The position numbers and the translations under genes were made by a program. Source: an archaeon GW2011_AR5 (GTDB taxonomy: Archaea; Aenigmatarchaeota; Aenigmatarchaeia; GW2011-AR5). From it: DNA of 64,000 nt. The notes under the pieces are model-generated. The model saw nothing but the letters and a program-made list of their open reading frames with translations, was not told where the DNA came from and ran no database searches. The stretch is taken from assembly GCA_000806115.1 (NCBI GenBank), contig JWKQ01000001.1:25784-89783 (forward strand), written 5' to 3'. Positions 1,991 to 55,105 of the stretch are shown one piece after another; position 1 is the stretch's first letter; each line of letters starts with the position of its first letter.

Positions 1991-2761
1991 TCACCCGATA
2001 TACTTGATGTCCTCGGGTTTGCCCTTGGAAATCTGCTGGAGCATCTTCTTGTGGATTTTGTCCGTTTTATCGATTCTTTCTTCCATCTCCTTGATGGTGT
2101 TCTCCAGCTTGGACATGTCAACCTTCACGCCGAGGACCTTGATGAGAACGTGCAGTACGCGGTCAGCCGCCTTCGGGTCCGTTATCAGCGGCAGCCCGAA
2201 GGTTTCGCCCATCAGACAGACTCCGTCTATGCCATGAACCTTCCCGAGTCCCAGAAGCAAGCCGGACGCGCCCACTATCGTGCCGATAGGGTGCTCCTTT
2301 CCGAAGTCGATGCCAAGCTTGTCATACTTCTTGAGCAGCTTCTTGTCGTTTACCGCGCCGATTATCCTCGGTTCGACGACTTCCTTGCCTTCCGCAAAGC
2401 CGCCCAGCGTTATCAACTCTTTTACGCCCATCTTGCCGACGAAATCCAGAATTTTCCCGCATATCTCGTAGTGACCCTCGGGCGTTATGCTCTGCGTGTC
2501 CCCGGTAAGCACTATTATGTCGCGCTTCTTGCCTTTATGATAATAAAACTCGCATTTCAGCATGCCTGCCACAGCATCGTTCTGGAGTATCACCAGGGGG
2601 AGGAAATGGGGAGAATAAAGCTCGGCGAATTTTTTCATCTTCAATTCATTCACAAGATAGCCGGCTGCGACCCGCCCGACATTGCCAATGCCCGGCAGGC
2701 CCTCAACAAGAAGCGGATTCTTCAATTTTACTTTCTCTAGAATTTTTATTGTCGTTTCCAT
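1991..2761 (-). CDS. PAC2-family proteasome assembly chaperone-like protein
   Basis: LVEGLPGIGNVGRVAAGYL N-terminal signature of PAC2/DUF75. The track start at 2782 is a TTG inside the repeat, so the ATG at 2761 (METTIKIL) is preferred. Confidence 0.75.
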   Translation of the reverse strand: METTIKILEKVKLKNPLLVEGLPGIGNVGRVAAGYLVNELKMKKFAELYSPHFLPLVILQNDAVAGMLKCEFYYHKGKKRDIIVLTGDTQSITPEGHYEICGKILDFVGKMGVKELITLGGFAEGKEVVEPRIIGAVNDKKLLKKYDKLGIDFGKEHPIGTIVGASGLLLGLGKVHGIDGVCLMGETFGLPLITDPKAADRVLHVLIKVLGVKVDMSKLENTIKEMEERIDKTDKIHKKMLQQISKGKPEDIKYIG

Positions 2762-2821
2762 ACCAATCCCTTTCTTTTCCAAAAGAAAGGTCTAGGTCTT
2801 ACCCAAAGAAAAGGGTTTGAC
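2762..2821 (-). repeat. leader-type two-hairpin element, copy A, abutting the PAC2 ATG
   Basis: Gene-sense read: GTCAAACCCTTTTCTTTGGGTAAGACCTAGACCTTTCTTTTGGAAAAGAAAGGGATTGGT-ATG. It aligns with copies at 16438, 16941, 35572 and 40600. Confidence 0.8.
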
Positions 2822-2842
2822 TCAACCTTTCGGTTTTCAATA

Positions 2843-2974
2843 TTATTTTTTCTTTGCCAGCCGCCTGTATTTTCCGTACTTGTCCTCTGACGAGAATTTC
2901 GGCGGATGGGCGCTTCGCGCATGCTCGCAGCACCCTTTTGTCGTGTAGCCGTGAACCGGGCATTTTTTCAGCAT
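2843..2974 (-). CDS. nop10: H/ACA RNP component Nop10
   Basis: Hand translation gives MLKKCPVHGYTTKGCCEHARSAHPPKFSSEDKYGKYRRLAKKK (43 aa, below the track cut-off). It has the SAHPxxFSxEDKYxxYRR Nop10 signature and lies 5 nt downstream of aIF2-alpha, the usual archaeal order. Confidence 0.85.
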   Translation of the reverse strand: MLKKCPVHGYTTKGCCEHARSAHPPKFSSEDKYGKYRRLAKKK

Positions 2975-2979
2975 CACTA

Positions 2980-3732
2980 TTATCTCTCGATTGTTTCGAA
3001 GGAAGCTTCTACGTCCTTCGATTTCAGCTTCTCAAGCTTCTCGACGAATTCCCTTTCTCCCTTCTTTGCATTCATCGACTTGTACTTCACCAGGTATTCA
3101 GGCGCCGCGATGTATTTCACTTCCAGCCCGTCTTCCTCTGCAGCTGATAATATCTTCTTGATTATATTTATACCGTTCGGCTTATAGGTTTTGACGAATA
3201 ACCTCGCCTTGAACTCGAACTCTTTCTGAACTATCGTGCGTTCGGCGACTATCTTCATCTGTTCTATCCACTTTTCAGGCACGCCGCGCTCCTTCAGAAG
3301 CTGGGGGTTGACTAGTGCCGCCTTGAAGCCCTCGTACAGCGAGCCGAAGCTGTCCTGGAGATCGAACCCCACTTCCTCGTAAGCCTTCTCCAGCGTTTTC
3401 TTCATTGCCTGGGCAGTCATCTGCAGCATCTTCTCGGCGCGCTGGTTGAGGCGGTATTCCTTTGTCTTGTTGTTTTCCTGGTTTCGGTCAACGCGCTTCA
3501 GAGAAAGAGAAATATGATTGTCTTCAATGCGCATTACCTTGGCGACGCCTGTCTGCCCGACTTTGACGAAGTTCCTGATGTCCTTCACCCAGCCGCTGGA
3601 AACCTCGGAAATGTGTATCATGCCCTCGGTGCCGTACTCTTCAAGATACGCGAAAGCCGAATGGGGATTTATCTTGCTTATCTTGACAATTACAAGCTCG
3701 CCGGGCTGCGGAAGGCCGCGTCTTTTTACCAT
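2980..3732 (-). CDS. eif2a: translation initiation factor aIF2 alpha subunit
   Basis: 250 aa. S1-domain N-terminus LPQPGELVIVKISKINPHSAFAYLEEY..GMIHISEVSSGWVKDIRNFVKVGQ. Confidence 0.93.
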   Translation of the reverse strand: MVKRRGLPQPGELVIVKISKINPHSAFAYLEEYGTEGMIHISEVSSGWVKDIRNFVKVGQTGVAKVMRIEDNHISLSLKRVDRNQENNKTKEYRLNQRAEKMLQMTAQAMKKTLEKAYEEVGFDLQDSFGSLYEGFKAALVNPQLLKERGVPEKWIEQMKIVAERTIVQKEFEFKARLFVKTYKPNGINIIKKILSAAEEDGLEVKYIAAPEYLVKYKSMNAKKGEREFVEKLEKLKSKDVEASFETIER

Positions 3733-3859: not shown

Positions 3860-4144
3860 ATGAACATGGTTTATCTTGTGAAGGTGGACGACGAGGTATT
3901 CGCAATACCCGGCGGATTTGTTGACGTAGCATTGGACAGATACGCCGGAAGAACTATAAATTATGCCGAATTGAAAGAGGCTTTGAAAAGGGAAAGAATA
4001 GACGGAGGAGACGCCCCTCAAATGGGCGGTTTTGGCGATTTGGGTTATTTAGATTTTGATACAATGGAAGAACGTGCGTTAAGGGAACCTTTGCCGATAG
4101 GACGGCATCGCACTCTTTATCATAGGACGCGCGAACGCCAGTGA
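3860..4144 (+). CDS. hypothetical protein
   Basis: 94-aa ORF with no motif. Its last codons and stop lie inside repeat copy B, so the 3' end may be fortuitous. Confidence 0.3.
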   Translation: MNMVYLVKVDDEVFAIPGGFVDVALDRYAGRTINYAELKEALKRERIDGGDAPQMGGFGDLGYLDFDTMEERALREPLPIGRHRTLYHRTRERQ

Positions 4145-4206
4145 GCCTACAGTAATAGGTTTTCTTTTTTCCAAGGGTTTTTCTTTTTTCAAAAGAAAAA
4201 GGCTTA
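4131..4206 (-). repeat. stop-codon-type element, copy B, on the rps27e stop
   Basis: Minus-strand read: TAAGCCTTTTTCTTTTGAAAAAAGAAAAACCCTTGG..CCTATTACTGTA-GGCTCACTGGCGTTCGC. The 17-nt core is exact. Confidence 0.8.
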
Positions 4207-4380
4207 ATCCATGACTTCTTCGACTTTCGTCTGGACGTCCGCAAGCCCGCCCGTCGGCTGCGCCAGAACGGATTCACAAACGAGGCACTTAACCACCGTG
4301 GCTGCCTTGCTGAACACTATCTGCTCGTTGCGGCATTTCTTGCACTTGACTTTCAAAAATCTGCTTTTTGGAGATTCCAT
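4204..4380 (-). CDS. rps27e: 30S ribosomal protein S27e (eS27)
   Basis: MESPKSRFLKVKCKKCRNEQIVFSKAATVVKCLVCESVLAQPTGG, a C4 zinc-ribbon typical of eS27. Confidence 0.9.
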   Translation of the reverse strand: MESPKSRFLKVKCKKCRNEQIVFSKAATVVKCLVCESVLAQPTGGLADVQTKVEEVMD

Positions 4381-4782: not shown

Positions 4783-5112
4783 GTGAAAAATATGAAGTCT
4801 GATGAAGAGATGAAGACTGAGGATATCCTTGAAATCGTCGAGATTGCAAGAGAAACAGGCAAGATAAGAAAGGGCATAAACGAAGCGACGAAAGCTGCAG
4901 AAAGGGGCATAGCAAAGGTAATCGTCGTTGCTGAAGACGTGGACCCTCCTGAAATTGCGATGCATCTCGGCCCGCTCTGCGAAGAGAAGAAATGCAAACT
5001 GTTCAAGGTGGCAAGCAAGAACGAGCTTGGACGGGCTGCAGGACTTGACGTCTCGACCGCGGCCGTGGCGATAACGGACCTGGGCGACGCCAAGAAGAAC
5101 TTCAAGGAGTAG
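4783..5112 (+). CDS. rpl7ae: 50S ribosomal protein L7Ae (eL8), K-turn binding
   Basis: [38 protein letters not shown] matches the L7Ae/L30e family. Confidence 0.92.
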
Positions 5113-5133: not shown

Positions 5134-5349
5134 ATGATTATGCCGGACGACGCAACACCAGCCGAGATAATAACCGTCTTTGGACGCGCGGGCACAAAGG
5201 GCGTTACGAGCGTGAAGTGCAGGGTGATAGACGGCCGCGACAAGGGCAAAATTCTTACAAGAAACGTCATGGGTCCCGTGAGAATGGGCGACGTGATCAT
5301 GCTGCGCGAAACCGAGATGGAATCAAGCGGCAGCTATGGAAGGCGCTAA
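5134..5349 (+). CDS. rps28e: 30S ribosomal protein S28e (eS28)
   Basis: AEIITVFGRAGTKGVTSVKCRVIDGRDKGKILTRNVMGPVRMGDVIMLRETE matches eS28. Confidence 0.92.
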   Translation: MIMPDDATPAEIITVFGRAGTKGVTSVKCRVIDGRDKGKILTRNVMGPVRMGDVIMLRETEMESSGSYGRR

Positions 5350-5351
5350 AA

Positions 5352-5519
5352 ATGAAATGTTCATTCTGTTCGACAAACATAGAGAAAGGCACGGGCAAGA
5401 TGTTCATACACAGCGGCGGGAAGATTTTCTACTACTGCTCGAACAAGTGCGAGAAGAACCAGCAGAAGCTCGGCAGAGATCCAAGGAATTTCAAGTGGGC
5501 AAAACCCGAAGGACGCTAA
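5352..5519 (+). CDS. rpl24e: 50S ribosomal protein L24e (eL24)
   Basis: Internal ATG of the track ORF 5127..5519. MKCSFCSTNIEKGTGKMFIHSGGKIFYYCSNKCEKN matches the eL24 zinc-ribbon. Standard L7Ae-S28e-L24e order. Confidence 0.9.
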   Translation: MKCSFCSTNIEKGTGKMFIHSGGKIFYYCSNKCEKNQQKLGRDPRNFKWAKPEGR

Positions 5520-5603
5520 CAGACGGACGCGAACAGGTGACGCCAAAGGCGTCATACGACATCGCGTCATACACTTTCGTCGTGTACCTCGAAAAGAAAT
5601 AAG

Positions 5604-5677
5604 TGAGACCTTTCTTTTAGAAAAAGAAAGTCCTCAAGCCTAAAGAAAAATATTAATGGTGACTCTCTGGCATTCGC
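5604..5677 (+). repeat. stop-codon-type element, copy C (degenerate)
   Basis: TGAGACCTTTCTTTTAGAAAAAGAAAGTCCTCAAGCCTAAAGAAAAATATTAATGGTGACTCTCTGGCATTCGC. Same architecture as copies G and H, but the core is diverged. Confidence 0.6.
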
Positions 5678-8137: not shown

Positions 8138-8190
8138 GGTTGCTAATTGTCGGGGGCGGAATAAAAAGTTTCCAGACTCGGATGTATATA

Positions 8191-8346
8191 GTTCTCCAAG
8201 GAAATAAGCAATATATAATTACTTCCTTGGGAACTACAAGGTGAAGCAAAGCTTCACCTGTACAGGAGAATCAAAGATTCTCCTTGTATCTGTGAACCCA
8301 GAATTCATGTCCTGTTTCTTTTCCGGGTTCACTATAAGATATAAAA
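8191..8346 (+). repeat. four-hairpin module 1 ending in a strong TATA-like box
   Basis: Stems at 8191-8203/8223-8234, 8239-8247/8251-8259, 8262-8272/8276-8287 and 8292-8299/8325-8332, followed by TATAAGATATAAAAG. Confidence 0.7.
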
Positions 8347-16146: not shown

Positions 16147-16437
16147 CTATGTAGAAACAACCTGGGCGTGCTTCACGCCTCCGATATCCAGCACAGAGGA
16201 GCTTTCCACAAGCCCGTTCTTTATCAGCAGGTTGACTATCCTGTTTCCCACGGCATTTATTATTGTGGAGCGTCTTGCGATGTCCAGTATCTCCTTTTCG
16301 CCGGTCTTCTTTCCTGCATAGAACTCGGAAACAGTTATCTCAATGTCGCCTGTGCCGAACGATTTCCCGATTATGTCATCGTCACAGACGGCGAGCATCC
16401 TGTCGCTGCCCTGTTCAAACAGATTGTAAGAGAACAT
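16147..16437 (-). CDS. DUF424-like protein (conserved neighbour of aIF2-beta)
   Basis: Internal ATG at 16437 of the track ORF 16147..16638 (MFSYNLFEQGSDRMLAVCDDDIIGKSF..). The ATG abuts repeat copy D. Confidence 0.6.
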   Translation of the reverse strand: MFSYNLFEQGSDRMLAVCDDDIIGKSFGTGDIEITVSEFYAGKKTGEKEILDIARRSTIINAVGNRIVNLLIKNGLVESSSVLDIGGVKHAQVVST

Positions 16438-16496
16438 TACCGATCCTTTTTCTTGGAAGAAAAAGTCTAGGTATCGCCAAAAAGAACTGGAGATCC
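16438..16496 (-). repeat. leader-type two-hairpin element, copy D
   Basis: Gene-sense read: GGATCTCCAGTTCTTTTTGGCGATACCTAGACTTTTTCTTCCAAGAAAAAGGATCGGTA-ATG. Confidence 0.8.
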
Positions 16497-16547
16497 TGTA
16501 GACTTGACTTCGTGTATTATTTGGAAATTTACATGCCAAGAAGTGCA

Positions 16548-16940
16548 TCACTTTACTGGCCTTTTCGCCCCGCAGGCTTCGCACTTGATGAACGTGTAGC
16601 TGTCGAGCTTCTGCAGGGAAGTGTCGGGCTTTCCGCACTCCTTGCAGATTACAAAATCGCGCACATACTCTTTGATTCTCTGGTTCACGAGCGAAGGCGG
16701 AACTTTCGCCTGCAGCACCAGCTCACTGCCCCTGATGTCTCCGGGCACTGCAAGTTCCTTGAAAAGGTATTTTGCCAGCTCTTGCGGCGTGCGCCTGATG
16801 GTCTTGACTATTTCGGCGAAATTCCTCAGCACCGTCTGCCGCTTGCCTGTCTGCACCGACGCTGTCGGAATCTCAAACCTCGTCTCGGTTCTTACAGGCA
16901 GGTTCTTTACGGCTTTCTTCAGCATCTCTTCGTATTCCAT
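16548..16940 (-). CDS. eif2b: translation initiation factor aIF2 beta subunit
   Basis: RFEIPTASVQTGKRQTVLRNF and the C-terminal zinc ribbon CKECGKPDT..CEACGA match aIF2-beta. Confidence 0.92.
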   Translation of the reverse strand: MEYEEMLKKAVKNLPVRTETRFEIPTASVQTGKRQTVLRNFAEIVKTIRRTPQELAKYLFKELAVPGDIRGSELVLQAKVPPSLVNQRIKEYVRDFVICKECGKPDTSLQKLDSYTFIKCEACGAKRPVK

Positions 16941-17002
16941 GTCGATCCCTTTTCTTTGAAAAGAAAAGGTCTAGACTATCACCCCAAAAGAAACAGGTGA
17001 TC
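16941..17002 (-). repeat. leader-type two-hairpin element, copy E
   Basis: Gene-sense read: GATCACCTGTTTCTTTTGGGGTGATAGTCTAGACCTTTTCTTTTCAAAGAAAAGGGATCGAC-ATG. Confidence 0.8.
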
Positions 17003-17030
17003 TTCAGACCTTGAATTCAATATTACTTTA

Positions 17031-31133: not shown

Positions 31134-31239
31134 ATTGATCTCTGGTATAGATTCGTTCTTCTTAGTATTTATTTGTGTTTTCCAGTTAATTTGCGGTTTG
31201 TGCGTATTGAAATAAAATCATGGGAAATGCCTAAGCATC

Positions 31240-31378
31240 GCGAACGCCAGTGAGCCAGAATAACTAATAAGTTTCTTTGGGGTAAGACCTAGACCTTTCT
31301 CGTAAGAAACCAAAGGTTTCTGGCGACTCAGGAAAGCTCCGCTTTCCTCGAGTTTCCGAAAGAAAGGGATTGGTATTA
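31240..31378 (-). repeat. composite repeat copy F (stop-type core plus leader-type body with internal insertion)
   Basis: Exact core at 31240-31256 (reverse complement). The body matches copy A almost base for base (GGGTAAGACCTAGACCTTTC ... AAAGAAAGGGATTGGTAT). There is an extra ~55 nt with two hairpins at 31306-31320 and 31331-31347. Confidence 0.8.
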
Positions 31379-31858
31379 GTCTTCTTCGTGACCTATCTTG
31401 AACTTTTCCTGAACAAATTCCTTCATGTCCATGATGTCGTCCTTGCCGTTCTCGAGATAGCCGCGCCGCTGCTTGTAATAGAACCCATGGTTGTAGAACC
31501 ACCAGAAGCTGCGCTGTATGAAATTAGCAAACGTGTAGCCGGTCTCCAGCGTGCCCTTTATCTCTATTGAGAAGTTGCCGGTCCCGTCCTTGTTCTGGAC
31601 TCCCTGCACGATCACTCGGATGAGCGTTCTTGACCACTGGTCCTCTGTGCGCTTCCCCATCCAGACGCCGTAAAAGCCTCCGTCAGTGATGTCCCACCGG
31701 ATGTCCGTTTCGAGCAGGTCTTTCCCGGGAATCTTCATGATGGTCTTTATCATGTCCGGCACCATTCCCATGATGGCGGCAGGATTCGAGCCCCTGTAAA
31801 CCACCTTCAGCCTGTCAGACGGAGCCATCAGGTCGTCTATAATCTTGAGGTCGCCCAT
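31376..31858 (-). CDS. hypothetical protein, paralog 1
   Basis: 160 aa. The C-terminal aromatic helix FIQRSFWWFYNHGFYYKQRRGYLENGKD aligns with MFRRFWHNMFYQQQRMQYLNLGKE of the ORF at 32508..33026. Confidence 0.6.
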   Translation of the reverse strand: MGDLKIIDDLMAPSDRLKVVYRGSNPAAIMGMVPDMIKTIMKIPGKDLLETDIRWDITDGGFYGVWMGKRTEDQWSRTLIRVIVQGVQNKDGTGNFSIEIKGTLETGYTFANFIQRSFWWFYNHGFYYKQRRGYLENGKDDIMDMKEFVQEKFKIGHEED

Positions 31859-33528: not shown

Positions 33529-33616
33529 GCCTTTCTTTCTTCAGAAGAAAGAAACCCTTAACGGAAAGAAAGAACTTATTATTAATTCTGGCTCACTGGC
33601 GTTCGCGAAAGCGAAC
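33526..33616 (+). repeat. stop-codon-type element, copy G
   Basis: TGAGCC-TTTCTTTCTTCAGAAGAAAGAAA-CCCTTAACGGAAAGAAAGAACTTATTATTAATTCT-GGCTCACTGGCGTTCGC, followed by the hairpin GTTCGC-GAAA-GCGAAC. Confidence 0.85.
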
Positions 33617-33689
33617 CACCTTATAATATTTTCTTTTTGATTGAGATTTTTCTTTACAAAGAAAAAGCTCAGCCGAGAAAACTTTATTT

Positions 33690-35468
33690 ATGGGGAGCGG
33701 GGATATAGTTCTACAGGAACAGGGCAAAAAATTAGATGTCAGAACCGATGGCGATATTATGGCTTTCAAAGACATGTTCAAACCGGTGAAAAAGAAAAAG
33801 GAGAAAAAAGAGAAGGGAAGCTGGATACTCGACGACATATCCAGGCACCCGCTAAAAGGCGACATACTCAACAAGGATCTGGGCAAGATGTGCGGGCCGA
33901 AGGGAAAGTGGCTGGGACATGTGATAGCCGCGGGACCTTTCGAGGCGCACCAGCAGCTTGACTTCACCGGGCCTCCGGGCTCGGTTTCCGGAATGTATTA
34001 CAGCCTTGTTTTCCAGCTCAGAAAATGGGAATATCAGGTGCAGAAGAGGGACGAATGGGTGGAGGTTTCTCCCGTCCATGCCCAGTACTACCAGCTGACC
34101 CAGAAGCAAAAAGAGGACCTCGAGGGGAGAATAAAGCAGGGGCTTGTTTCCGTCTCGCAATCCGTGGCAGACATGGAACTCCTTATGCACGACAGGCGCA
34201 GGTACCACGAGTTCCTCCATTACCTCGGCTACAGGACCCCGAAAGAACTTATCAAGGACAAGAAGCTTGAGGACAGGGAGAGGAAGGAACATTCCCATGT
34301 TGACGAGGAAATGGACGAGATATGCCTCAATGAGGATAATGACGACGACGAAAGAAAAGAAAGGGAAAAGCGGACGGACAACCATTCACTGAAGGCTGTT
34401 TTCATAGACCAGGTGGACATGCACACCGGCGAAGGGATTTCCATGAGGAGCATAGTGAGCCGCTGGCCCACGCTCATCACCGACTTCATGAGGATGGACG
34501 ACGGCGACATGGACCCGGACAAGGTGAAAAACAAGCTGGACATCTCCCGCGCAGAAGCAGTGGTTCTGATAACGAAGAACAAGCTCTACCAGGAATGGAA
34601 GAACATGTTCGGCCCCGAGATAAAGAACAGGTACGTCACCATCAATGACCTCACCCACGCAAGGAAGAAGTCCGTTGAGGAGTACAAGGAGTGGCTGAAG
34701 CCGTTCATAGCGCGCCACAGGCTGCTCAAGGAGGGGCTGGCGCAGGAAGGCATGCGCAAGGGAGGCGTGACATCGTTCGTCACCACAGCCGGCACGGCGA
34801 CATCATCGTCGAAAATCGTGCTTTACGTCTGGAAGGATTTCCTCGTGCCGGAACTCTACAAGGGCGGCTCGGAGGAGACTGCAAAGCTCAGGGAATTCAA
34901 GAAATTGAAACCAAATGACGACTGGACAATGAAGCACCTAATATTCAACGAGAGATACGGACTGATAAACAAATACGACTGGATCACGGAAGACTGGGTA
35001 AACGAACATGCGGAAAAAATGAAAAACGACGGATGGTTCACCCACCAGAAGCCCTATTACTCGTTCTTCCAGATAACGCTTGACAAGACGAACATAAGGA
35101 TGCCCACAGGCGACGAGCTCGAGGACGGCGTGTTTGACATAAACATGTTCTGCATGAGCGAGAACGCGCTTTTTGCAAAACTGCTCGAGCTGAAGGCGGA
35201 GCAGGAGCTGATGGAGCAGCACGTCAATAAACTGCTCGGGATGCACAAGCCCGTAAGGGGCAAGATTCCGAAATACGCGTTCAAGGAGGGCGCTTTTGAC
35301 AAGTTCCTCGACAGATTCAAAATGCCGTTCATTTTTGCCAAGAACCACGGGCCCTACGAACGCGACTTCGCAGACAGGCTCACGAAGATATACTTCGCGC
35401 GCATAGCAGGCGAGCGCTACGCACCGATAGTCAACTTCATCAAGGGCAAGATGGGGATGAAAGGTTGA
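33690..35468 (+). CDS. large uncharacterized protein
   Basis: 592-aa uninterrupted ORF with a Lys-rich N-terminus and an acidic insert (DEEMDEICLNEDNDDDERKEREKR). I recognised no catalytic or nucleotide-binding motif. Confidence 0.7.
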   Translation: MGSGDIVLQEQGKKLDVRTDGDIMAFKDMFKPVKKKKEKKEKGSWILDDISRHPLKGDILNKDLGKMCGPKGKWLGHVIAAGPFEAHQQLDFTGPPGSVSGMYYSLVFQLRKWEYQVQKRDEWVEVSPVHAQYYQLTQKQKEDLEGRIKQGLVSVSQSVADMELLMHDRRRYHEFLHYLGYRTPKELIKDKKLEDRERKEHSHVDEEMDEICLNEDNDDDERKEREKRTDNHSLKAVFIDQVDMHTGEGISMRSIVSRWPTLITDFMRMDDGDMDPDKVKNKLDISRAEAVVLITKNKLYQEWKNMFGPEIKNRYVTINDLTHARKKSVEEYKEWLKPFIARHRLLKEGLAQEGMRKGGVTSFVTTAGTATSSSKIVLYVWKDFLVPELYKGGSEETAKLREFKKLKPNDDWTMKHLIFNERYGLINKYDWITEDWVNEHAEKMKNDGWFTHQKPYYSFFQITLDKTNIRMPTGDELEDGVFDINMFCMSENALFAKLLELKAEQELMEQHVNKLLGMHKPVRGKIPKYAFKEGAFDKFLDRFKMPFIFAKNHGPYERDFADRLTKIYFARIAGERYAPIVNFIKGKMGMKG

Positions 35469-35539
35469 GCCTTTTTCTTTGAGGAAAGAAAAAGCCTCAA
35501 CGGAAAAAGAAAATATTACTAAGGCTCACTGGCGTTCGC
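35466..35539 (+). repeat. stop-codon-type element, copy H
   Basis: TGAGCC-TTTTTCTTTGAGGAAAGAAAAAG-CCTCAACGGAAAAAGAAAATATTACTAA-GGCTCACTGGCGTTCGC. Confidence 0.85.
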
Positions 35540-35571
35540 TGAAAAATAATATTTGAAGATAAAGTTTACAA

Positions 35572-35626
35572 GATCACCAGTTCTTTTGGTGAGACGTAGA
35601 CTTTTCTTACCAAGAAAAGGATCCGT
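35572..35626 (+). repeat. leader-type two-hairpin element, copy J
   Basis: GATCACCAGTTCTTTTGGTGAGACGTAGACTTTTCTTACCAAGAAAAGGATCCGT-ATG. Confidence 0.8.
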
Positions 35627-37333
35627 ATGTCAGAAGAACAAAAAAAACCGCTGTACACCGTGGGCATATCGACAGGATTTTGGAGAATCGGCAAGGACCC
35701 CAATCTGCTCGGCCTGGCGCAGAAAATCGGCGGGCTGGGCGCCACGGGCGGAATCCGGTTCGTCCAGATAGACCTAGAGACGATAGCGGAGTTCGCCGAG
35801 CCTGACGTAAGAAATCAAATAAGGCGCATCCAGAGCAAGCTTGGCATCGGCGAAGTCGGACTTCACGGGGAGATAGGCGAGCTGATGGCGCTGGACTCGG
35901 CGGAGAAGCGCATATGGGATCAGACGCACCGAAGGCTCTGCCAGACGGTGAAATTCGCCGCTGAGGTGGGATTTCTTTATGTAAATGTCCACTTCTCAAA
36001 CAAGCAGTTCATTTCTTTTACCGAGGCGCAGCACCGGACGCAGGGTTACTTCTATCCTGTCGTGGGCTATGACGGAAGAGGGTTGCAGAACGTAGTGAAG
36101 GACCATCCTGCAATCTGGGACGAGGTAAAGAAGCGCATGCCACGGACGCTTTCGCAGAGTGGCACATTCCAGGAAAAATACAGAGCGTTGCGAGAATCCA
36201 AGATCGCCCAAGCGCCGGTGCTCATCGAGCAGGCAGTGAGAAGGGACATGGAAATGATTCCAGAAGGGCAACGGACACCGGAGGAGAGAAAAAGACGTGA
36301 AGAGTACCACAAAAATCAGATAGTGCCCAGCCTTCTGCAGCAGGCAAGGGAAGAGGCTCAGTCACCAGAGTTCGAATTCGATGCATGGCTGAACTTGAGA
36401 GATGACGAGTCAGAGAAGTACCAGCTGGACGACGGGGAATGGGGCGCATACCATGTGATTGCTCACTGCATGAAGGCTGCGCATGACACGTTCTGGTCGA
36501 ACATAGCCGGGAACAAAGATCCAGAATCGCTTTACTTCAAGGACGAACAGGCCTTCTGCGCGGCTGTGTCGTCAAAATACATAGAAGGACACCTGACGCT
36601 CAAGGATAATGATGCCAACAGAAAACATCTGGATGGAATGAGCGTCAAGGAATGGTGCGAGAAGCACAAGCTCATGCTTCTGCTTGAAAACCCGGAGTCC
36701 GGAGAAGGCGCCGAGGGGCTATACAGGCTGTTCGACCCGCAGCAGTTCTATTTTACGATAAAGAAAATAGGCTCGCCTTACGTGCGCGTGACGATAGACT
36801 TCGAGCACATGGTGTCGCAGGGCATAGACCCTGATGACATGCTTCCCAAGCTTCCTGGCGATTTCGGAAAAATGATATTCTTATTTCACCTGGGGCAGGC
36901 TGTGCCTTACGGCGGAACAGCCCACATACCCATAGCCAGAGGCAGCATCGCGCAGGAGCAGATATACAGGTGGCTTTTCTGGATGCGCAAAAAGGGATGG
37001 ACGCGCGGCTACATGATGTTCGAGCGCGGCGGCGGGCGCACCGGACAGGGGAGGCTGCCGAACGAGGTGTTCGAGGACAGCGTGCAGGCGCTGCGTCAGA
37101 TTGCCACATACCTGGAGAAAGACGCCAAGCCCGAGGCGCTCCCGCCGGAATTCTACGGGGTATCGGTGCGGAACGAGCCCGTATGGGCGCGGCAGATGGT
37201 GGCCATACGCGAGCATGCATGGGACCCGCTCGAGGGGCTGCTGAGCGTGTCCGAGGAGAAGCACACGTTCCTCAGCAAGGCAGCTGTCGAAAAGAACAAG
37301 GCGCAGGAATGGGAGAAGCGGAAGTTCAGGTAA
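35627..37333 (+). CDS. xylose-isomerase-like TIM-barrel protein with a large charged insertion (tentative)
   Basis: 568 aa. Strand-end motifs VGLHGE, LYVNVH, LLLENPE, TIDFEH, LFHLGQ and MFERGG resemble the sugar-phosphate isomerase/endonuclease IV TIM-barrel superfamily. A ~200-aa insert rich in Glu/Arg/Gln separates the halves. Confidence 0.55.
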   Translation: MSEEQKKPLYTVGISTGFWRIGKDPNLLGLAQKIGGLGATGGIRFVQIDLETIAEFAEPDVRNQIRRIQSKLGIGEVGLHGEIGELMALDSAEKRIWDQTHRRLCQTVKFAAEVGFLYVNVHFSNKQFISFTEAQHRTQGYFYPVVGYDGRGLQNVVKDHPAIWDEVKKRMPRTLSQSGTFQEKYRALRESKIAQAPVLIEQAVRRDMEMIPEGQRTPEERKRREEYHKNQIVPSLLQQAREEAQSPEFEFDAWLNLRDDESEKYQLDDGEWGAYHVIAHCMKAAHDTFWSNIAGNKDPESLYFKDEQAFCAAVSSKYIEGHLTLKDNDANRKHLDGMSVKEWCEKHKLMLLLENPESGEGAEGLYRLFDPQQFYFTIKKIGSPYVRVTIDFEHMVSQGIDPDDMLPKLPGDFGKMIFLFHLGQAVPYGGTAHIPIARGSIAQEQIYRWLFWMRKKGWTRGYMMFERGGGRTGQGRLPNEVFEDSVQALRQIATYLEKDAKPEALPPEFYGVSVRNEPVWARQMVAIREHAWDPLEGLLSVSEEKHTFLSKAAVEKNKAQEWEKRKFR

Positions 37334-40038: not shown

Positions 40039-40599
40039 TTACGCGGCTGCAACCTTCTCAATAATCTCCGTTCTCCGGATTTCTATGCTTCCGATGGGAT
40101 AGACCTTGCTTGCGTCTTTCCTGAGCTTGTGCTGCAGGTCGCCTGAAATTATGGCATTTACAAATTCCTCAAAAGTCGACTTGGCTGCAGCTTCTTCAAT
40201 AAGCTCCCTTGTGAGCTTTCTTGTGGCGTCTTTCGTCGAACTGCCGACGCGCTTGATGAGCATGAAAACCGTCTTTACACGCACATGCACGCCGTCCTTG
40301 GTAACCACGTCCTGGATTGCGTCCACGCGGCGGCCATGGCGCTGAACCATGCGGTAGATGCGCTCGCGGAGCACGTCGTGGCCGACGAGCCTGGTGTGCG
40401 CCCTGTTGCCGTCAATCTTGTCGATCTGCAGGCGCACCTTGACAAAGAACTTCGAGTAACTATTCGAGATGTCCATGAGGCTGACATCCATCTTCCTTCC
40501 GACAAGCTGGCGGCTGTCCGCAGCAAGGGTCTCGCCGATAGGCTTGCCCCCGAACATCTCCGGCGCCACTATTTCGTACCACGTTTTTTTAACTGCCAT
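40039..40599 (-). CDS. rps3ae: 30S ribosomal protein S3Ae (eS1)
   Basis: KKTWYEIVAPEMFGGKPIGETLA..LVGRKMDVSLMD..FFVKVRLQI matches eS1. Confidence 0.92.
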   Translation of the reverse strand: MAVKKTWYEIVAPEMFGGKPIGETLAADSRQLVGRKMDVSLMDISNSYSKFFVKVRLQIDKIDGNRAHTRLVGHDVLRERIYRMVQRHGRRVDAIQDVVTKDGVHVRVKTVFMLIKRVGSSTKDATRKLTRELIEEAAAKSTFEEFVNAIISGDLQHKLRKDASKVYPIGSIEIRRTEIIEKVAAA

Positions 40600-40654
40600 A
40601 TCGATCCCTTTCTTGCAAGAAAGGTCTAGATTTCACCCCAAAGAACTGGGGATC
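40600..40654 (-). repeat. leader-type two-hairpin element, copy I
   Basis: Gene-sense read: GATCCCCAGTTCTTTGGGGTGAAATCTAGACCTTTCTTGCAAGAAAGGGATCGAT-ATG. Confidence 0.8.
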
Positions 40655-40722
40655 TTGAAGAACTGCTTTCAGATATTATCAACCTTACTTGAGCCAGAAG
40701 TTTTAAAAAGGTTAGGTGCCCG

Positions 40723-41481: not shown

Positions 41482-41518
41482 ATTCCCACTATAAAATCAA
41501 ATCTTAAATACGGCTTAT

Positions 41519-41596
41519 ACAGGAGAATTTTCGATTCTCCTTGTATATGTGAACCCACTTGCGCGAAAATCTTTTGTGGGTTCACTATAAAAATAT
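41519..41596 (+). promoter_or_regulatory. two-hairpin module plus TATA box of the leaderless DNA ligase gene
   Basis: Stems at 41519-41528/41533-41544 and GTGAACCC 41549-41556/GGGTTCAC 41578-41585, then TATAAAAATAT at 41586-41596, centred ~25 nt before the ATG at 41615. Confidence 0.6.
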
Positions 41597-48141: not shown

Positions 48142-48218
48142 CAGGAAATCTCTCAAATAAAGGAACTTTATAGTTCTACAAGGAAACAAACAAGAAAAAA
48201 ACCAGCTTGCTGTGAGAA

Positions 48219-54945: not shown

Positions 54946-55013
54946 GGAATAATTATGAAAGAATCAGTAAATAAAAGCGGCTGGTAATTGCCGTGTCGGC
55001 TCATAACTATATA

Positions 55014-55105
55014 GTGAACCCAGAAAAGAATATGTGCACGCTGGGTTCACAGATAGTTCCCAAGGAAATAATATCCAGATTGTTTCCTTGGAGAACTATA
55101 AATAT
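55014..55105. promoter_or_regulatory. divergent promoter with two inverted repeats flanked by TATA boxes
   Basis: GTGAACCC 55014-55021/GGGTTCAC 55043-55050 and GTTCCCAAGGAAA 55056-55068/TTTCCTTGGAGAAC 55083-55096. TATAAATAT at 55097-55105 is centred ~28 nt before the ATG at 55129. ACTATATAG at 55006-55014 faces the minus-strand gene. Confidence 0.6.

Follow-up and report, generated by a model that had tools for sequence, protein, structure and literature searches.

Why should five unrelated genes of one archaeal genome be preceded by the same short sequence, which in each case runs up to the start codon? The genome is that of a Candidatus Aenigmatarchaeota (DPANN) archaeon, of which a stretch of 64,000 nucleotides (the window) was analysed, and an earlier note on the window had proposed that the shared sequence is a cis-acting leader for the control of translation, for processing or for stability. 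All five sequences were recovered where the note had placed them, on the same strands and each ending at an ATG, and the ORFs downstream are both real and unrelated according to Pfam (AP_endonuc_2 TIM barrel, Ribosomal_S3Ae, eIF-5_eIF-2B, DUF424 and PAC2). The element is about 57 nt long, consists of two hairpins and lies 0-1 nt 5′ of the ATG in each of its five copies (Table 1). As the note had suggested, we built a covariance model from these copies, leaving out the ATG, and searched both strands of the 64 kb; it returned just the five matches, at 70-81 bits, with a runner-up at 28 bits. The core pattern similarly matched five times in the window and never in 100 shuffles. There are about 82 gene starts per 128,000 strand positions and, by our own estimate, the chance that a match falls at one is roughly 1e-3. 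Since five of five matches end 0-1 nt from a start, their placement is far beyond chance.

Table 1. Coordinates of the element, its parts and related features in the window (minus-strand parts are given in the direction of reading).
Feature	Position	Strand	Score	Upstream box	Hairpin 1	Run before hairpin 2	Hairpin 2	ATG	Remarks
Copy A, TIM-barrel (AP_endonuc_2) gene	35546..35629	+	74.2 bits	ATAATAT 35546-35552; GAAGA 35555-35559	35574-35592	SD-like GGTGA 35588-35592	35594-35626	35627-35629	long form
Copy B, rps3ae	40597..40679	-	71.9 bits	ATAATAT 40679-40673	40651-40636	SD-like GGGGTGA 40639-40633	40631-40600	40599-40597	
BRE/TATA-like box of rps3ae	40701..40711	-							canonical, CCTTTTTAAAA; conserved in all rps3ae orthologues
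Copy C, eIF2-beta	16938..17025	-	71.0 bits	TAATAT 17025-17020	17001-16978	SD-like GGGGTGAT 16985-16978	16976-16941	16940-16938	lies 28 nt past the Rpp14 stop codon
Copy D, DUF424	16435..16520	-	80.8 bits	ATAATAC 16520-16514	16494-16473	TGGCGAT 16479-16473	16472-16439	16437-16435	single spacer A before ATG
Copy E, PAC2	2759..2846	-	69.9 bits	ATAATAT 2846-2840	2816-2801	GGGTAAG 2804-2798	2797-2762	2761-2759	ATAATAT box overlaps the Nop10 stop codon
Copy F	31261..31374	+	38.9 bits, E=1.4e-6						short form without hairpin-1 5′ arm; hairpin-2 end 1 nt from stop codon 31376-31378 of minus-strand gene 31376-31858
Copy F hairpin-2 loop insertion	31301-31359	+							about 59 nt
Distant relative, terminator-like	35464..35517	-	28.1 bits; 33.0 bits in second scan						AATAT-TTTCTTTTT-N-TTGAG(polyT/polyA hairpin)CTCAA; hairpin overlaps stop codon of gene 33690-35468(+)
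Distant relative, terminator-like	5603..5654	-	32.4 bits						hairpin end abuts stop codon of gene 5336-5602(+)
Distant relative, terminator-like	33623..33672	+	32.2 bits						sense; ends 17 nt before ATG of gene 33690-35468
Distant relative, terminator-like	4151..4207	+	23.6 bits						polyT/polyA hairpin

The 3′-most of the two hairpins, hairpin 2, is real. When 52 copies are compared, pairing is kept in 98.7% of cells in the outer 3-bp stem, where each position shows 4-6 different pair types, and in 99.8% of cells in the inner stem, in which CCUUUCUU pairs with AAGAAAGG. Neither the paired fraction nor the covariation score was reached by any of 500 shuffles, and both collapsed when the partner column was slid; covariation was also tested on the window's five copies alone. 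The note had correctly observed that the arms of this hairpin change while remaining complementary, but its account of the stem was incomplete, as the three nucleotides preceding the ATG also pair with the three preceding UAGAC. These outer-stem pairs are ACG/CGU, AUC/GAU, GUC/GAC and ACC/GGU in the window copies, and the 3′ strand of the stem touches the AUG. Such compensatory changes point to a hairpin that forms at the level of RNA, with a predicted stability of -8.3 to -13.0 kcal/mol. Moreover, hairpin 2 begins at a variable 29-33 nt from the ATG, whereas the base of its stem is constantly 0-1 nt from it, a pattern easier to reconcile with an RNA hairpin than with a DNA box set at one distance. 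The description of the element as two hairpins thus holds well for hairpin 2, which is about 99% paired, but far less well for hairpin 1, at 77.5%.

Within hairpin 2 there is a conserved internal loop, (N)AGA/GAU(N′), that contains tandem G.A pairs. With A-U or C-G at N/N′ it becomes a continuous helix that holds a 2x2 G.A block. The 5′-AGAC/3′-UAGG motif occurs in 5/5 window copies and in 8/10 pattern-independent copies from related genome contigs, the G.A geometry being read from the sequence; among metagenome copies, the invariance of AGAC/GGAU is partly imposed by the search pattern. Tandem G.A/A.G pairs adjoining a helix, as read in this way, are shared with kink-turns. However, UAGA faces GAUC in a symmetric loop, and the 3-nt bulge that a kink-turn has on one strand, directly 5′ of its G.A pairs, is missing, so the element is not a kink-turn. 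Two further candidates were discarded: a long-range pairing between the 5′ and 3′ GAUC sequences is not conserved by relatives, and a coding function or N-terminal extension conflicts with an in-frame TGA in copy B and with copy lengths that differ by non-multiples of three.

Immediately upstream of hairpin 2 is a G-run that resembles a Shine-Dalgarno (SD) sequence, where complementarity to 16S rRNA was judged from the archaeal consensus and from the SD cores of other genes in the window. Of 17 ordinary SDs in the window, 13 are spaced 3-7 nt from the start, and the combined cores spell GGAGGTGAT. The end of the G-run is 33-37 nt from the ATG, and not 35-45 nt as had been stated. The accompanying proposal that folding would bring the run beside the AUG agrees with the geometry, which leaves about 1 unpaired nt on the 5′ side of the hairpin and 0-1 nt on the 3′ side. 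The components that define a split ribosome-binding site (RBS) are thereby present, namely an SD-like run distant from the start, an unpaired spacer of 0-1 nt, and a hairpin supported by covariation that fills the interval. Three of the five copies have a G-run with a predicted anti-SD pairing energy of -7.4 to -12.0 kcal/mol, as compared with -5.3 to -11.6 kcal/mol for the window's ordinary SDs, and the run is a poor SD in the DUF424 copy (-4.9 kcal/mol) and the PAC2 copy (-3.8 kcal/mol). A second SD-like block, GGGAUC, is found in the 3′ strand of hairpin 2 at a canonical distance from the AUG, with pairing of -4.0 to -8.6 kcal/mol. Hairpin 1 sequesters the G-run by pairing it with an anti-SD-like arm (GAUCACC), and would therefore have to open for the 30S subunit to bind. 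The G-run is conserved in copies located in tRNA introns and at gene 3′ ends as well (see below); mean anti-SD pairing is -5.4 kcal/mol for copies upstream of ORFs and -4.2 kcal/mol for the others (one-sided p=0.06, with samples that are not independent). Since the run thus belongs to the consensus of the repeat in non-coding contexts, its likeness to an SD may be incidental.

Promoter-like sequences suggest where transcripts that include the element might begin. Upstream of copy B, the CTTTTTAA box of the conserved BRE/TATA-like sequence of rps3ae begins 31 nt before the ATAATAT box, and would place the transcription start at the ATAATAT box. In about 6 of 24 copies upstream of ORFs a canonical BRE/TATA lies 32-42 nt upstream of the ATAATAT box, and elsewhere this box is itself the best TATA candidate; these assignments were scored with a Gibbs-derived matrix, and such scoring does not fix a start site. 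Three of the five window copies are situated at short same-strand junctions (Rpp14-eIF2beta-DUF424 and Nop10-PAC2), so a leaderless start is not available to the downstream gene where it is co-transcribed. We also considered hairpin 2 as the promoter of a leaderless transcript, and rejected it: its T-rich arm lies at -29 to -18, with a centre at -17 to -18.5, as opposed to -31 to -24 for the TATA boxes of the window, and the distance changes with the length of the stem.

The note had further argued that a repeat would not be expected to keep both orientation and distance, and that the element should therefore be a dedicated leader. This argument fails, because the core is a dispersed repeat found in many contexts other than ORF starts, and the five segments are long-form members of this hairpin-forming family. 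The family occurs in a subclade of Aenigmatarchaeota and in other uncultured archaea, and its constant core comprises TTCTTT followed by the G-run, a spacer of 4-7 nt and hairpin 2. Some copies stop 0-2 nt short of the mature 5′ end of a tRNA; others lie beside an SRP RNA, antisense against stop codons, and, again antisense, inside introns of tRNA D-, anticodon and T-loops. The window itself holds a sixth copy, copy F, which the note lacked; no gene start follows it, and it is antisense to its neighbours. Eight copies occur in about 84 kb of this genome, among them two of the antisense stop-codon copies; the roughly 20 kb of extra flanking sequence, examined for a copy in a tRNA context, contains no tRNA. 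Because copies fit just as precisely against tRNA 5′ ends and stop codons, sites at which bridging an SD to a start codon would be meaningless, abutment alone is no argument for such a bridge.

The copies upstream of ORFs nevertheless form a distinct subtype. All 24 that were collected, from the window, related genomes and metagenomes, are in the sense orientation and 0-1 nt from the start codon, which bears out the earlier description of a structured leader of fixed orientation. A complete lack of preference for start codons had been named as grounds for giving up that idea; preference is indeed partly lost over the whole family, but not in the long-form ORF subtype. Copies of this subtype carry an extra 5′ block, made up of the ATAATAT box, GAAGAYAAGG and the 5′ arm of hairpin 1, with the ATAATAT box at a constant 20-23 nt before the element. 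The long-form sequence ATAATAT-N-GAAG was found in 14 of the 24 ORF copies and in 1 of 32 others.

Comparison of orthologous sites revealed both retention and turnover. The rps3ae copy is retained in eight Aenigmatarchaeota genomes, i.e., that of the window and seven relatives with 49-87% protein identity (L001, L002, L004, L007, L009, L015 and L020); in distant orthologues of this gene, a plain GGTGAT stands 3-8 nt ahead of the start codon where the window's clade has the element. The element is also kept before TIM-barrel and PAC2 orthologues. At the TIM-barrel locus it is present in the window and L009 and absent from L001 and L005, whose orthologues have GGGTGA or AGGTGA at a distance of 4-5 nt from the start. 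L044 matches the window at 92.5% identity and has identical flanks at the PAC2 locus, yet the two differ in leader subtype. Thus, there are many non-coding copies at unrelated loci as well as presence/absence polymorphism at orthologous sites, both of which are marks of a MITE, and the family is probably mobile. Traces of insertion vary: a 57-nt copy in a tRNA T-loop of L142 has a flanking 4-nt AAAT direct repeat and L053 has a 16-nt duplicated flank; at the window copies consistent target duplication was not seen, and the 5′ T-rich block mirrors the 3′ arm only in part. When an autonomous parent was sought in viral contigs, none of 100 pattern matches passed the model, as compared with 42 of 119 pattern matches from metagenomes. 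L028 has paired copies with ORFs between them. In L117, the ORF between two copies looks by eye like a putative methyltransferase.

Several tRNA genes appear to carry the element as an intron. A single in-silico deletion from the end of hairpin 2 restores a tRNA recognised by ARAGORN in the D-loop cases (L053, L126), the anticodon-loop cases (L107, L128) and the T-loop case (L142), and the Rfam tRNA model spans the insert in L128. A plausible bulge-helix-bulge can be drawn by eye in L117 and L128, and is not evident in L142, whose tRNA has acceptor-stem mismatches. Comparison of the contigs with tRNA-context copies to Aenigmatarchaeota loci by tblastx found too little gene content in common for placement. 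On inspection, no bulge-helix-bulge could be drawn at the leader-AUG junctions of the window.

What, then, might the element do at start codons? We tentatively favour the following reading, while placing it somewhat short of an even chance. The long-form unit, always in sense before protein genes, would be transcribed as a 5′ or intercistronic leader. Hairpin 2 would fold, looping out the inserted 32-36 nt, and the GGGGUGA(U) run just 5′ of its base would come to adjoin the AUG just 3′ of it. The outcome would be a discontinuous RBS of the type seen in phage T4 genes 25 and 38, and hairpin 1 may also cap the 5′ end. If this is correct, it would be the first split RBS in Archaea, one that a reduced DPANN genome reuses as a cassette on many of its housekeeping genes, and it may show how translation can still start behind an inserted repeat.

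This loop-out reading has to be weighed against others. The repeat could be selfish or neutral, like a MITE or REP palindrome, with no role in expression, and persist wherever it is harmless, i.e., in leaders, introns and gene ends; its tight abutment to genes would then reflect extreme genome streamlining. The many unrelated contexts in both orientations, the patchiness at orthologous sites together with the observed swap of cassettes, the duplications flanking the L142 and L053 copies, and the other window hairpins that likewise abut or overlap stop codons are all in its favour. We nonetheless regard this explanation as doubtful, if by no means negligible, for the rps3ae copy has been kept, with compensatory changes, down to 49% protein identity, the 24 ORF copies are strictly in sense and have a long-form block of their own, and a stable hairpin at the AUG should do harm unless translation accommodates it. 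There are also no clear terminal inverted repeats, and no transposase partner emerged from a listing of the ORFs around the paired L028 copies. An explanation at the level of DNA, in which promoter, operator or bidirectional terminator-insulator activity resides in the palindrome and T-tracts and no RNA structure is involved, would draw on the resemblance of the T-rich arms to archaeal oligo-T terminators, the kinship with terminator-like hairpins at gene ends, the constant position of the ATAATAT box, and a predicted ability to work in either orientation relative to neighbouring genes. It is the least probable reading that we consider. The outer stem covaries yet stays complementary, and hairpin 1 contains a U.G wobble, which are signatures of RNA rather than of DNA bound by a protein; the tandem G.A, although not a Watson-Crick pairing, persists instead of being resolved into a perfect palindrome; and the T-rich arm is, by a variable 2-6 nt, too near the ATG for a leaderless TATA box.

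The remaining alternatives accept an RNA element but assign it another task. The real SD could be the GGGAUC block, 3-4 nt upstream of the AUG and sequestered in the 3′ strand of hairpin 2, so that translation is repressed until temperature, a helicase or a protein opens the stem. GGGAU(C/U) is at a canonical distance and is the better candidate in two copies, its GGAU is highly conserved, and hairpin 2 is stable. Yet GGAU is equally conserved in tRNA-context copies (partly due to the search pattern), the pairing requires a bulge and has only GAUC as its contiguous part, and covariation in the outer stem suggests that selection favours a folded hairpin rather than one of marginal stability. 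As constitutive repression would also be odd for housekeeping genes, we think such a switch unlikely. A trans-acting RNA-binding protein could instead read the AGA/GAU tandem-G.A loop and co-regulate the leader-bearing genes in translation or stability, in the manner of L7Ae at k-turns in 5′ leaders. The loop is indeed conserved in sequence between freely covarying stems and adjoins the AUG, an L7Ae gene is encoded in the window, and archaeal L7Ae provides a precedent (PMC5539422, PMC6298567). This is quite improbable in our view, given a symmetric loop (4x4, or a continuous helix with a 2x2 G.A block) without the k-turn's 3-nt bulge, an identical loop in tRNA and 3′-end copies, and target genes that have no functional theme beyond housekeeping. 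Finally, an endonuclease could cut at the 3′ base of hairpin 2 and regenerate a leaderless mRNA or a mature tRNA 5′ end. This would account for the equal 0-2-nt precision at start codons and mature tRNA 5′ ends. It would also suit a genome in which leaderless mRNA is the default type, as many first genes in the window look leaderless, with TATA at -31 to -24, and in which the distance from the conserved rps3ae promoter to the 5′ end of the unit is exactly that of a leaderless gene. Against such cleavage, the leader-AUG junctions yield no bulge-helix-bulge, we know of no enzyme that cleaves such a hairpin at its 3′ foot, the tRNA cases can be put down to RNase P, of which p30 and Rpp14 are encoded here, without recourse to the element, and the antisense copies at gene 3′ ends are left unexplained. 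Removal of the leader is thus very unlikely.

A broader reading would join the two kinds of context. It is possible, although we are sceptical, that one family colonises both tRNA loops, from which it would be removed as an intron, and the junctions of transcription starts and start codons in mRNAs, where its own SD-like run and loop-out hairpin would convert leaderless or short-leader genes into leadered ones. If so, tRNA-intron gain and the evolution of mRNA leaders in archaea would be tied to a single mobile agent, which would offer a sequence-tagged system for the spread of tRNA introns, possibly by way of RNA processing enzymes instead of a transposase. Whatever the mechanism, the family joins tRNA introns at non-canonical positions, leaders of tRNAs and mRNAs, and hairpins at gene ends, which are usually studied apart. 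We know of no mechanism by which archaeal tRNAs gain introns, and a repeat that is recognisable in introns, in leaders and against empty orthologous sites makes such gain accessible to comparative genomics. In addition, true start codons, among them a TTG start in L002, can be located to within a base by means of the element, as an aid to the annotation of these little-known genomes, and the covariance model can be used for a census.

The element appears to be undescribed. In agreement with the earlier note, which had not recognised a described motif, Rfam 15 had no matches in the whole window at gathering thresholds; a permissive Rfam scan of two copies gave only a chance-level match to CRISPR-DR57 (E=0.61) on the opposite strand, and targeted searches of the full-text literature did not find a description of the element. 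Bacteria have several families of intergenic palindromic repeats or MITEs that are co-transcribed with genes (REP/BIME/REPIN, Correia/NEMIS, ERIC, RUP and BOX), and these can supply promoter, stability or terminator functions. Like such REP and MITE families, the present repeat is short, non-coding, hairpin-forming, multi-copy, intergenic beside genes and variable at orthologous sites. Unlike them, it is archaeal (DPANN), shares no sequence similarity, lacks a GTAG head as well as any identified partner of the RAYT or transposase kind, and is unusual in fitting so exactly against start codons, tRNA ends and exon junctions.

With the k-turn leaders through which archaeal L7Ae controls translation (PMC5539422, PMC6298567), the element shares a tandem G.A element at the translation start of archaeal mRNAs, but it is not confined to the mRNA of L7Ae itself. 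In Thermoproteales, introns similar in sequence have spread among tRNA genes by what is called 'tRNA intron transposition', thought to act at the DNA level by an unknown mechanism (Fujishima et al. 2010, as summarised in PMC4090602). As far as that summary describes them, those introns resemble ours in the spread of similar sequences among tRNA genes; ours differ in lineage and sequence and in that their splicing is only predicted, and the element extends beyond tRNA introns to the leaders of mRNAs and tRNAs and to gene 3′ ends, contexts not reported for the Thermoproteales introns. The closest parallel for the preferred loop-out reading comes from phage T4, where in genes 25 and 38 the SD and AUG are 22-27 nt apart and are bridged by an intervening hairpin; these split RBSs are present in close relatives and absent in distant ones, and one case is intercistronic (PMC3014915). 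The T4 examples are single-gene solutions in a bacterial virus, whereas here one cassette precedes many unrelated genes of an archaeon, also occurs where no translation takes place, has its SD paired in hairpin 1 as well, and has a predicted function. In both systems, however, the SD is too far from the AUG (here 33-37 nt), a hairpin restores a working distance, and the arrangement is found in close relatives and is missing in distant ones.

The earlier note had described five segments that each stop at an ATG, and their positions and strands stand on re-verification (see table). The downstream ORFs are real and, as it stated, unrelated; by their Pfam matches they encode an AP_endonuc_2-type TIM barrel, ribosomal protein S3Ae, eIF2-beta, DUF424 and PAC2. 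We scored R1, a covariance model of the five copies with the ATG omitted, at every position and on both strands of the window. The matches are exactly the five copies, at 70-81 bits, far above the next best match (28 bits); the core pattern matches five times in the window and never in 100 shuffles. Rfam gave no match for the whole window at gathering thresholds and no family in a permissive scan over two copies, which agrees with the earlier view that the motif is not a described one.

The 3' hairpin (hairpin 2) was said to stay paired while its arms change. This covariation holds, but the description was incomplete: the three bases directly 5' of the ATG pair with the three before UAGAC, forming an additional 3-bp outer stem that touches the ATG and covaries among the window copies (ACG/CGU, AUC/GAU, GUC/GAC, ACC/GGU). 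Within the outer stem is a 4x4 loop, with UAGA facing GAUC, which can be read as the pairs N.N', A-U, G.A and A.G; interior to this loop lies a polypyrimidine/polypurine inner stem. Among the 52 copies aligned to the model, drawn from all sources, 98.7% of outer-stem cells are paired, with 4-6 pair types per position, as are 99.8% of inner-stem cells; hairpin 1 is paired in 77.5% of cells, frequently as U.G, and is missing from many copies. The observed paired fraction and covariation score were reached in none of 500 shuffles, and both collapse when the partner column is shifted by 1-3 positions. AGAC/GGAU is nearly invariant in the metagenome copies, partly because the search pattern forces it, and is kept in 8 of the 10 copies obtained from contigs of related genomes independently of the pattern. 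The symmetry of the hairpin 2 loop excludes a k-turn, and no bulge-helix-bulge site can be drawn at the AUG, which excludes that reading as well.

What did not survive is the idea of a dedicated mRNA leader. The element is a dispersed repeat, found also at tRNA 5' ends, in tRNA introns, beside SRP RNA and at stop codons. A core-pattern scan of metagenomes gave at least 119 loci; 42 of the 119 listed pass R1, and in about 14 of these 42 a start codon follows after 0-1 nt. As a viral control, the same pattern matched 120 loci, and none of the 100 run through R1 passed. In five loci with an antisense element, one in-silico deletion gives back an ARAGORN tRNA. The segment deleted from L142 is 57 nt, the element alone, flanked by an AAAT direct repeat, and L117 has two T-loop introns, each beginning with the reverse complement of hairpin 2. 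Both 5' and 3' gene contexts occur in the window's own genome: a sixth window copy has its end 1 nt from the stop codon of a convergent gene, and in the ~20 kb beyond the window ends that were also searched, a short-form antisense copy overlaps the stop codon of an EMC3-like gene, while a long-form copy, its loop enlarged by an insertion of ~55 nt, ends 1 nt before the start of a PilB/T2SSE ATPase gene (8 copies in the about 84 kb examined). The constant core of the family consists of TTCTTT, an SD-like G-run, a spacer and hairpin 2, whose end faces functional sequence in every case. In L112 the copy flanking a tRNA nearly matches the window DUF424 copy; L053 carries an archaeal LSU rRNA start.

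Positions of the element, its relatives and neighbouring features
Feature	Source	Position (strand)	Remark
Element, TIM barrel	window	35572-35626 (+)	
Element, rps3ae	window	40654-40600 (-)	
Element, eif2b	window	17002-16941 (-)	
Element, DUF424	window	16496-16438 (-)	
Element, PAC2	window	2821-2762 (-)	
Sixth copy	window	31261-31374	
Hairpin-2 loop insertions	window; L266	31301-31359; about 3325-3381	~55-59 nt
Terminator-like relatives	window	35464-35517 (-), 5603-5654 (-), 33623-33672 (+), 4151-4207 (+)	
GGCTCACTGGCGTTCGCG repeat, 17-18 nt	window	about 35523-35540 (+), 33590-33607 (+)	reverse complement 31239-31256, 4130-4147
GGAGAATnnnnnATTCTCC and GTGAACCC...GGGTTCAC module	window	8261-8337, 41518-41596	reverse complement 55003-55029
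TTTATAGTTCTCCAAGGAAACAA repeat	window	48167-48189, 8182-8220	reverse complement 55080-55102
Nop10 gene, 43 aa	window	2843-2974 (-)	PF04135, E=2e-12
L7Ae gene	window	about 4792-5112 (+)	in r-protein cluster with S27e, S28e, L24e
TIM-barrel orthologue start	L001	15060-15090 (-)	
tRNA-Ala gene	L053; L112	297-392; 1-90	G3.U70 identity pair, D-loop insert
tRNA-Met(CAT) gene	L128; L092	22-195; near 3525	
Element 0-2 nt before mature tRNA 5' end, same strand	L048, L100, L106, L123		
Element antisense within tRNA gene	several loci		hairpin-2 end at 5' exon boundary
tRNA restored by deletion	L053, L126; L107, L128; L142		D-loop; anticodon loop; T-loop
Sense copy within intron	L057		
Reverse complement directly 3' of tRNA	L140		
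SRP RNA flanked by two copies	L109		
Antisense, overlapping or abutting stop codon	L076, L119, L120, L132		

Several further features were seen at these loci. The tRNA-Ala genes have a reverse-complemented element upstream, and in L053 a 16-nt duplicate of the tRNA 5' end (GGGCTGGTAGATCAAC) also comes before the gene, an arrangement resembling the fragment-plus-intron pattern described for Caldiarchaeum (PMC3293823). At the tRNA-Met genes an antisense element abuts the anticodon loop, and on its own strand the sequence again continues T-ATG, the ATG being the CAT anticodon in reverse complement; this is probably a coincidence. In both copies with loop insertions, loop and insert together start with CGTAAGA and have further small hairpins inside, which suggests nested insertion or a longer element variant. 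The terminator-like relatives, at 23-33 bits with a broad model, consist of AATAT, a T-tract and a TTGAG-(polyT/polyA)-CTCAA hairpin, which in those at 35464 and 5603 overlaps or abuts a stop codon. Four different hairpin elements have the GGCTCACTGGCGTTCGCG repeat within a few bases of their AATAT box, in one orientation or the other; it may be a protein-binding site or a piece of a composite repeat. The two-palindrome intergenic module, located in 5' or divergent promoter regions, looks like putative transcription-factor operator sites; the third intergenic repeat, TTTATAGTTCTCCAAGGAAACAA, lies near it.

The ORF copies are a distinct subtype. Their fixed orientation is borne out, with 24 of 24 in sense, and 14 of the 24 have a 5' block, TAATAT-N(0-4)-GAAG, 20-23 nt ahead of the model start, versus 1 of 32 others, the exception being the decayed rps3ae copy of L006 (Fisher's p 4e-6, for copies that are not independent). 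The genes served are diverse housekeeping genes (S3Ae, S26e, eIF2-beta, SBDS, Rrp41, beta-CASP RNase, CDC48, PAC2, HtpX, M42 peptidase, GlmS, FtsX permease, DUF424, TIM barrel and PilB). Three window copies occupy short same-strand junctions, in the orders RNase P p30-PCC-Rpp14-element-eIF2beta-element-DUF424 and eIF2alpha-Nop10-element-PAC2. The Nop10 gene runs into the PAC2 leader, its stop codon overlapping the ATAATAT box there; it was missed by a crude gene call with a 70-aa minimum ORF length.

At orthologous sites the distribution is patchy. An rps3ae protein search gave 26 loci, mostly labelled Candidatus Aenigmatarchaeota (DPANN), the closest being RIFCSPLOWO2_01_FULL_48_10 (87% protein identity). 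The element directly precedes rps3ae in L001, L002, L004, L007, L009, L015 and L020 (49-87% protein identity) and is decayed there in L006; in more distant Aenigmatarchaeota an ordinary SD of the GGTGAT type takes its place, 3-8 nt from the start. Other orthologues with the element directly upstream are the TIM-barrel gene of L009 and the PAC2 gene of L044. In L001 and L005, closer kin of the window than L009, the TIM-barrel orthologue lacks it and has only GGGTGA or AGGTGA, 4-5 nt from the start. That of L001 apparently starts with ATA or ATC after the SD GGGTGA, with no ATG, GTG or TTG at the position homologous to the window start codon. L044 and the window share 92.5% DNA identity over 2 kb and are identical in the flanking coding sequences of Nop10 and PAC2, but the PAC2 leaders differ by ~40% plus a 26-nt indel, that of L044 having the hairpin-1 subtype typical of L001 and L005.

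Many first genes of the window follow a BRE/TATA motif, A(A/G)AA(G/C)nTTTA, with the TATA box at -31 to -24 from the ATG, the spacing expected of leaderless genes. SD cores, which jointly spell GGAGGTGAT, occur in a minority of genes, 3-7 nt from the start in 13 of 17. A 57-nt structured leader is thus unusual in this genome. All rps3ae orthologues keep the promoter CCTTTTTAAAACTTCT, whose CTTTTTAA box begins 31 nt before the ATAATAT box. This distance is exactly that of leaderless genes and would put the transcript start at the ATAATAT box, for a predicted length of about 88 nt; by homology with L001, the TIM-barrel copy would have the same arrangement. A canonical BRE/TATA box lies 32-42 nt upstream of the ATAATAT box in about 6 of 24 ORF copies. 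In the remainder the ATAATAT box itself is the best TATA candidate, predicting a start at the 5' arm of hairpin 1. A role for the element as a leaderless gene's TATA box is excluded by its wrong and variable position.

We infer transcription, function and mobility alike, and our preferred but tentative reading is that the dispersed repeat is probably mobile, forms a transcribed leader, and is tolerated or put to use by means of a hairpin that loops out and creates a split RBS. The geometry fits the earlier proposal that folding brings the SD-like block beside the AUG: with hairpin 2 folded, about 1 nt would remain between G-run and stem base and 0-1 nt between stem and AUG, making the effective SD-AUG distance normal, as in T4 genes 25 and 38. 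Pairing of the G-run with the assumed anti-SD is -7.4 to -12.0 kcal/mol in three window copies and weak in the other two (-4.9, -3.8 kcal/mol); ORF copies pair marginally better than non-ORF copies (p=0.06). That the element is simply a neutral selfish repeat seems unlikely to us. A masked SD, the true one being GGGAUC on the 3' side of hairpin 2, is a real rival because this second candidate sits at canonical spacing (-4.0 to -8.6 kcal/mol), though we think it distinctly improbable. We give little credence to a protein operator, slightly less to a removable leader, and least to a module acting at the DNA level.

Targeted full-text literature searches returned no description of an element common to tRNA introns and mRNA leaders. 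The element links the two, and may be the first archaeal split RBS. It behaves similarly to bacterial REP/MITE-type intergenic repeats, which are characterised by defining heads, partners and terminal repeats; it differs in having no such heads, no identified partner and no proven terminal repeats. Its members within tRNA introns bring to mind the unexplained way in which introns have spread from one tRNA gene to another in Thermoproteales (PMC4090602). In the T4 genes a hairpin between SD and AUG gives a normal effective distance (PMC3014915); the element would work alike, as a multi-gene cassette in an archaeon.
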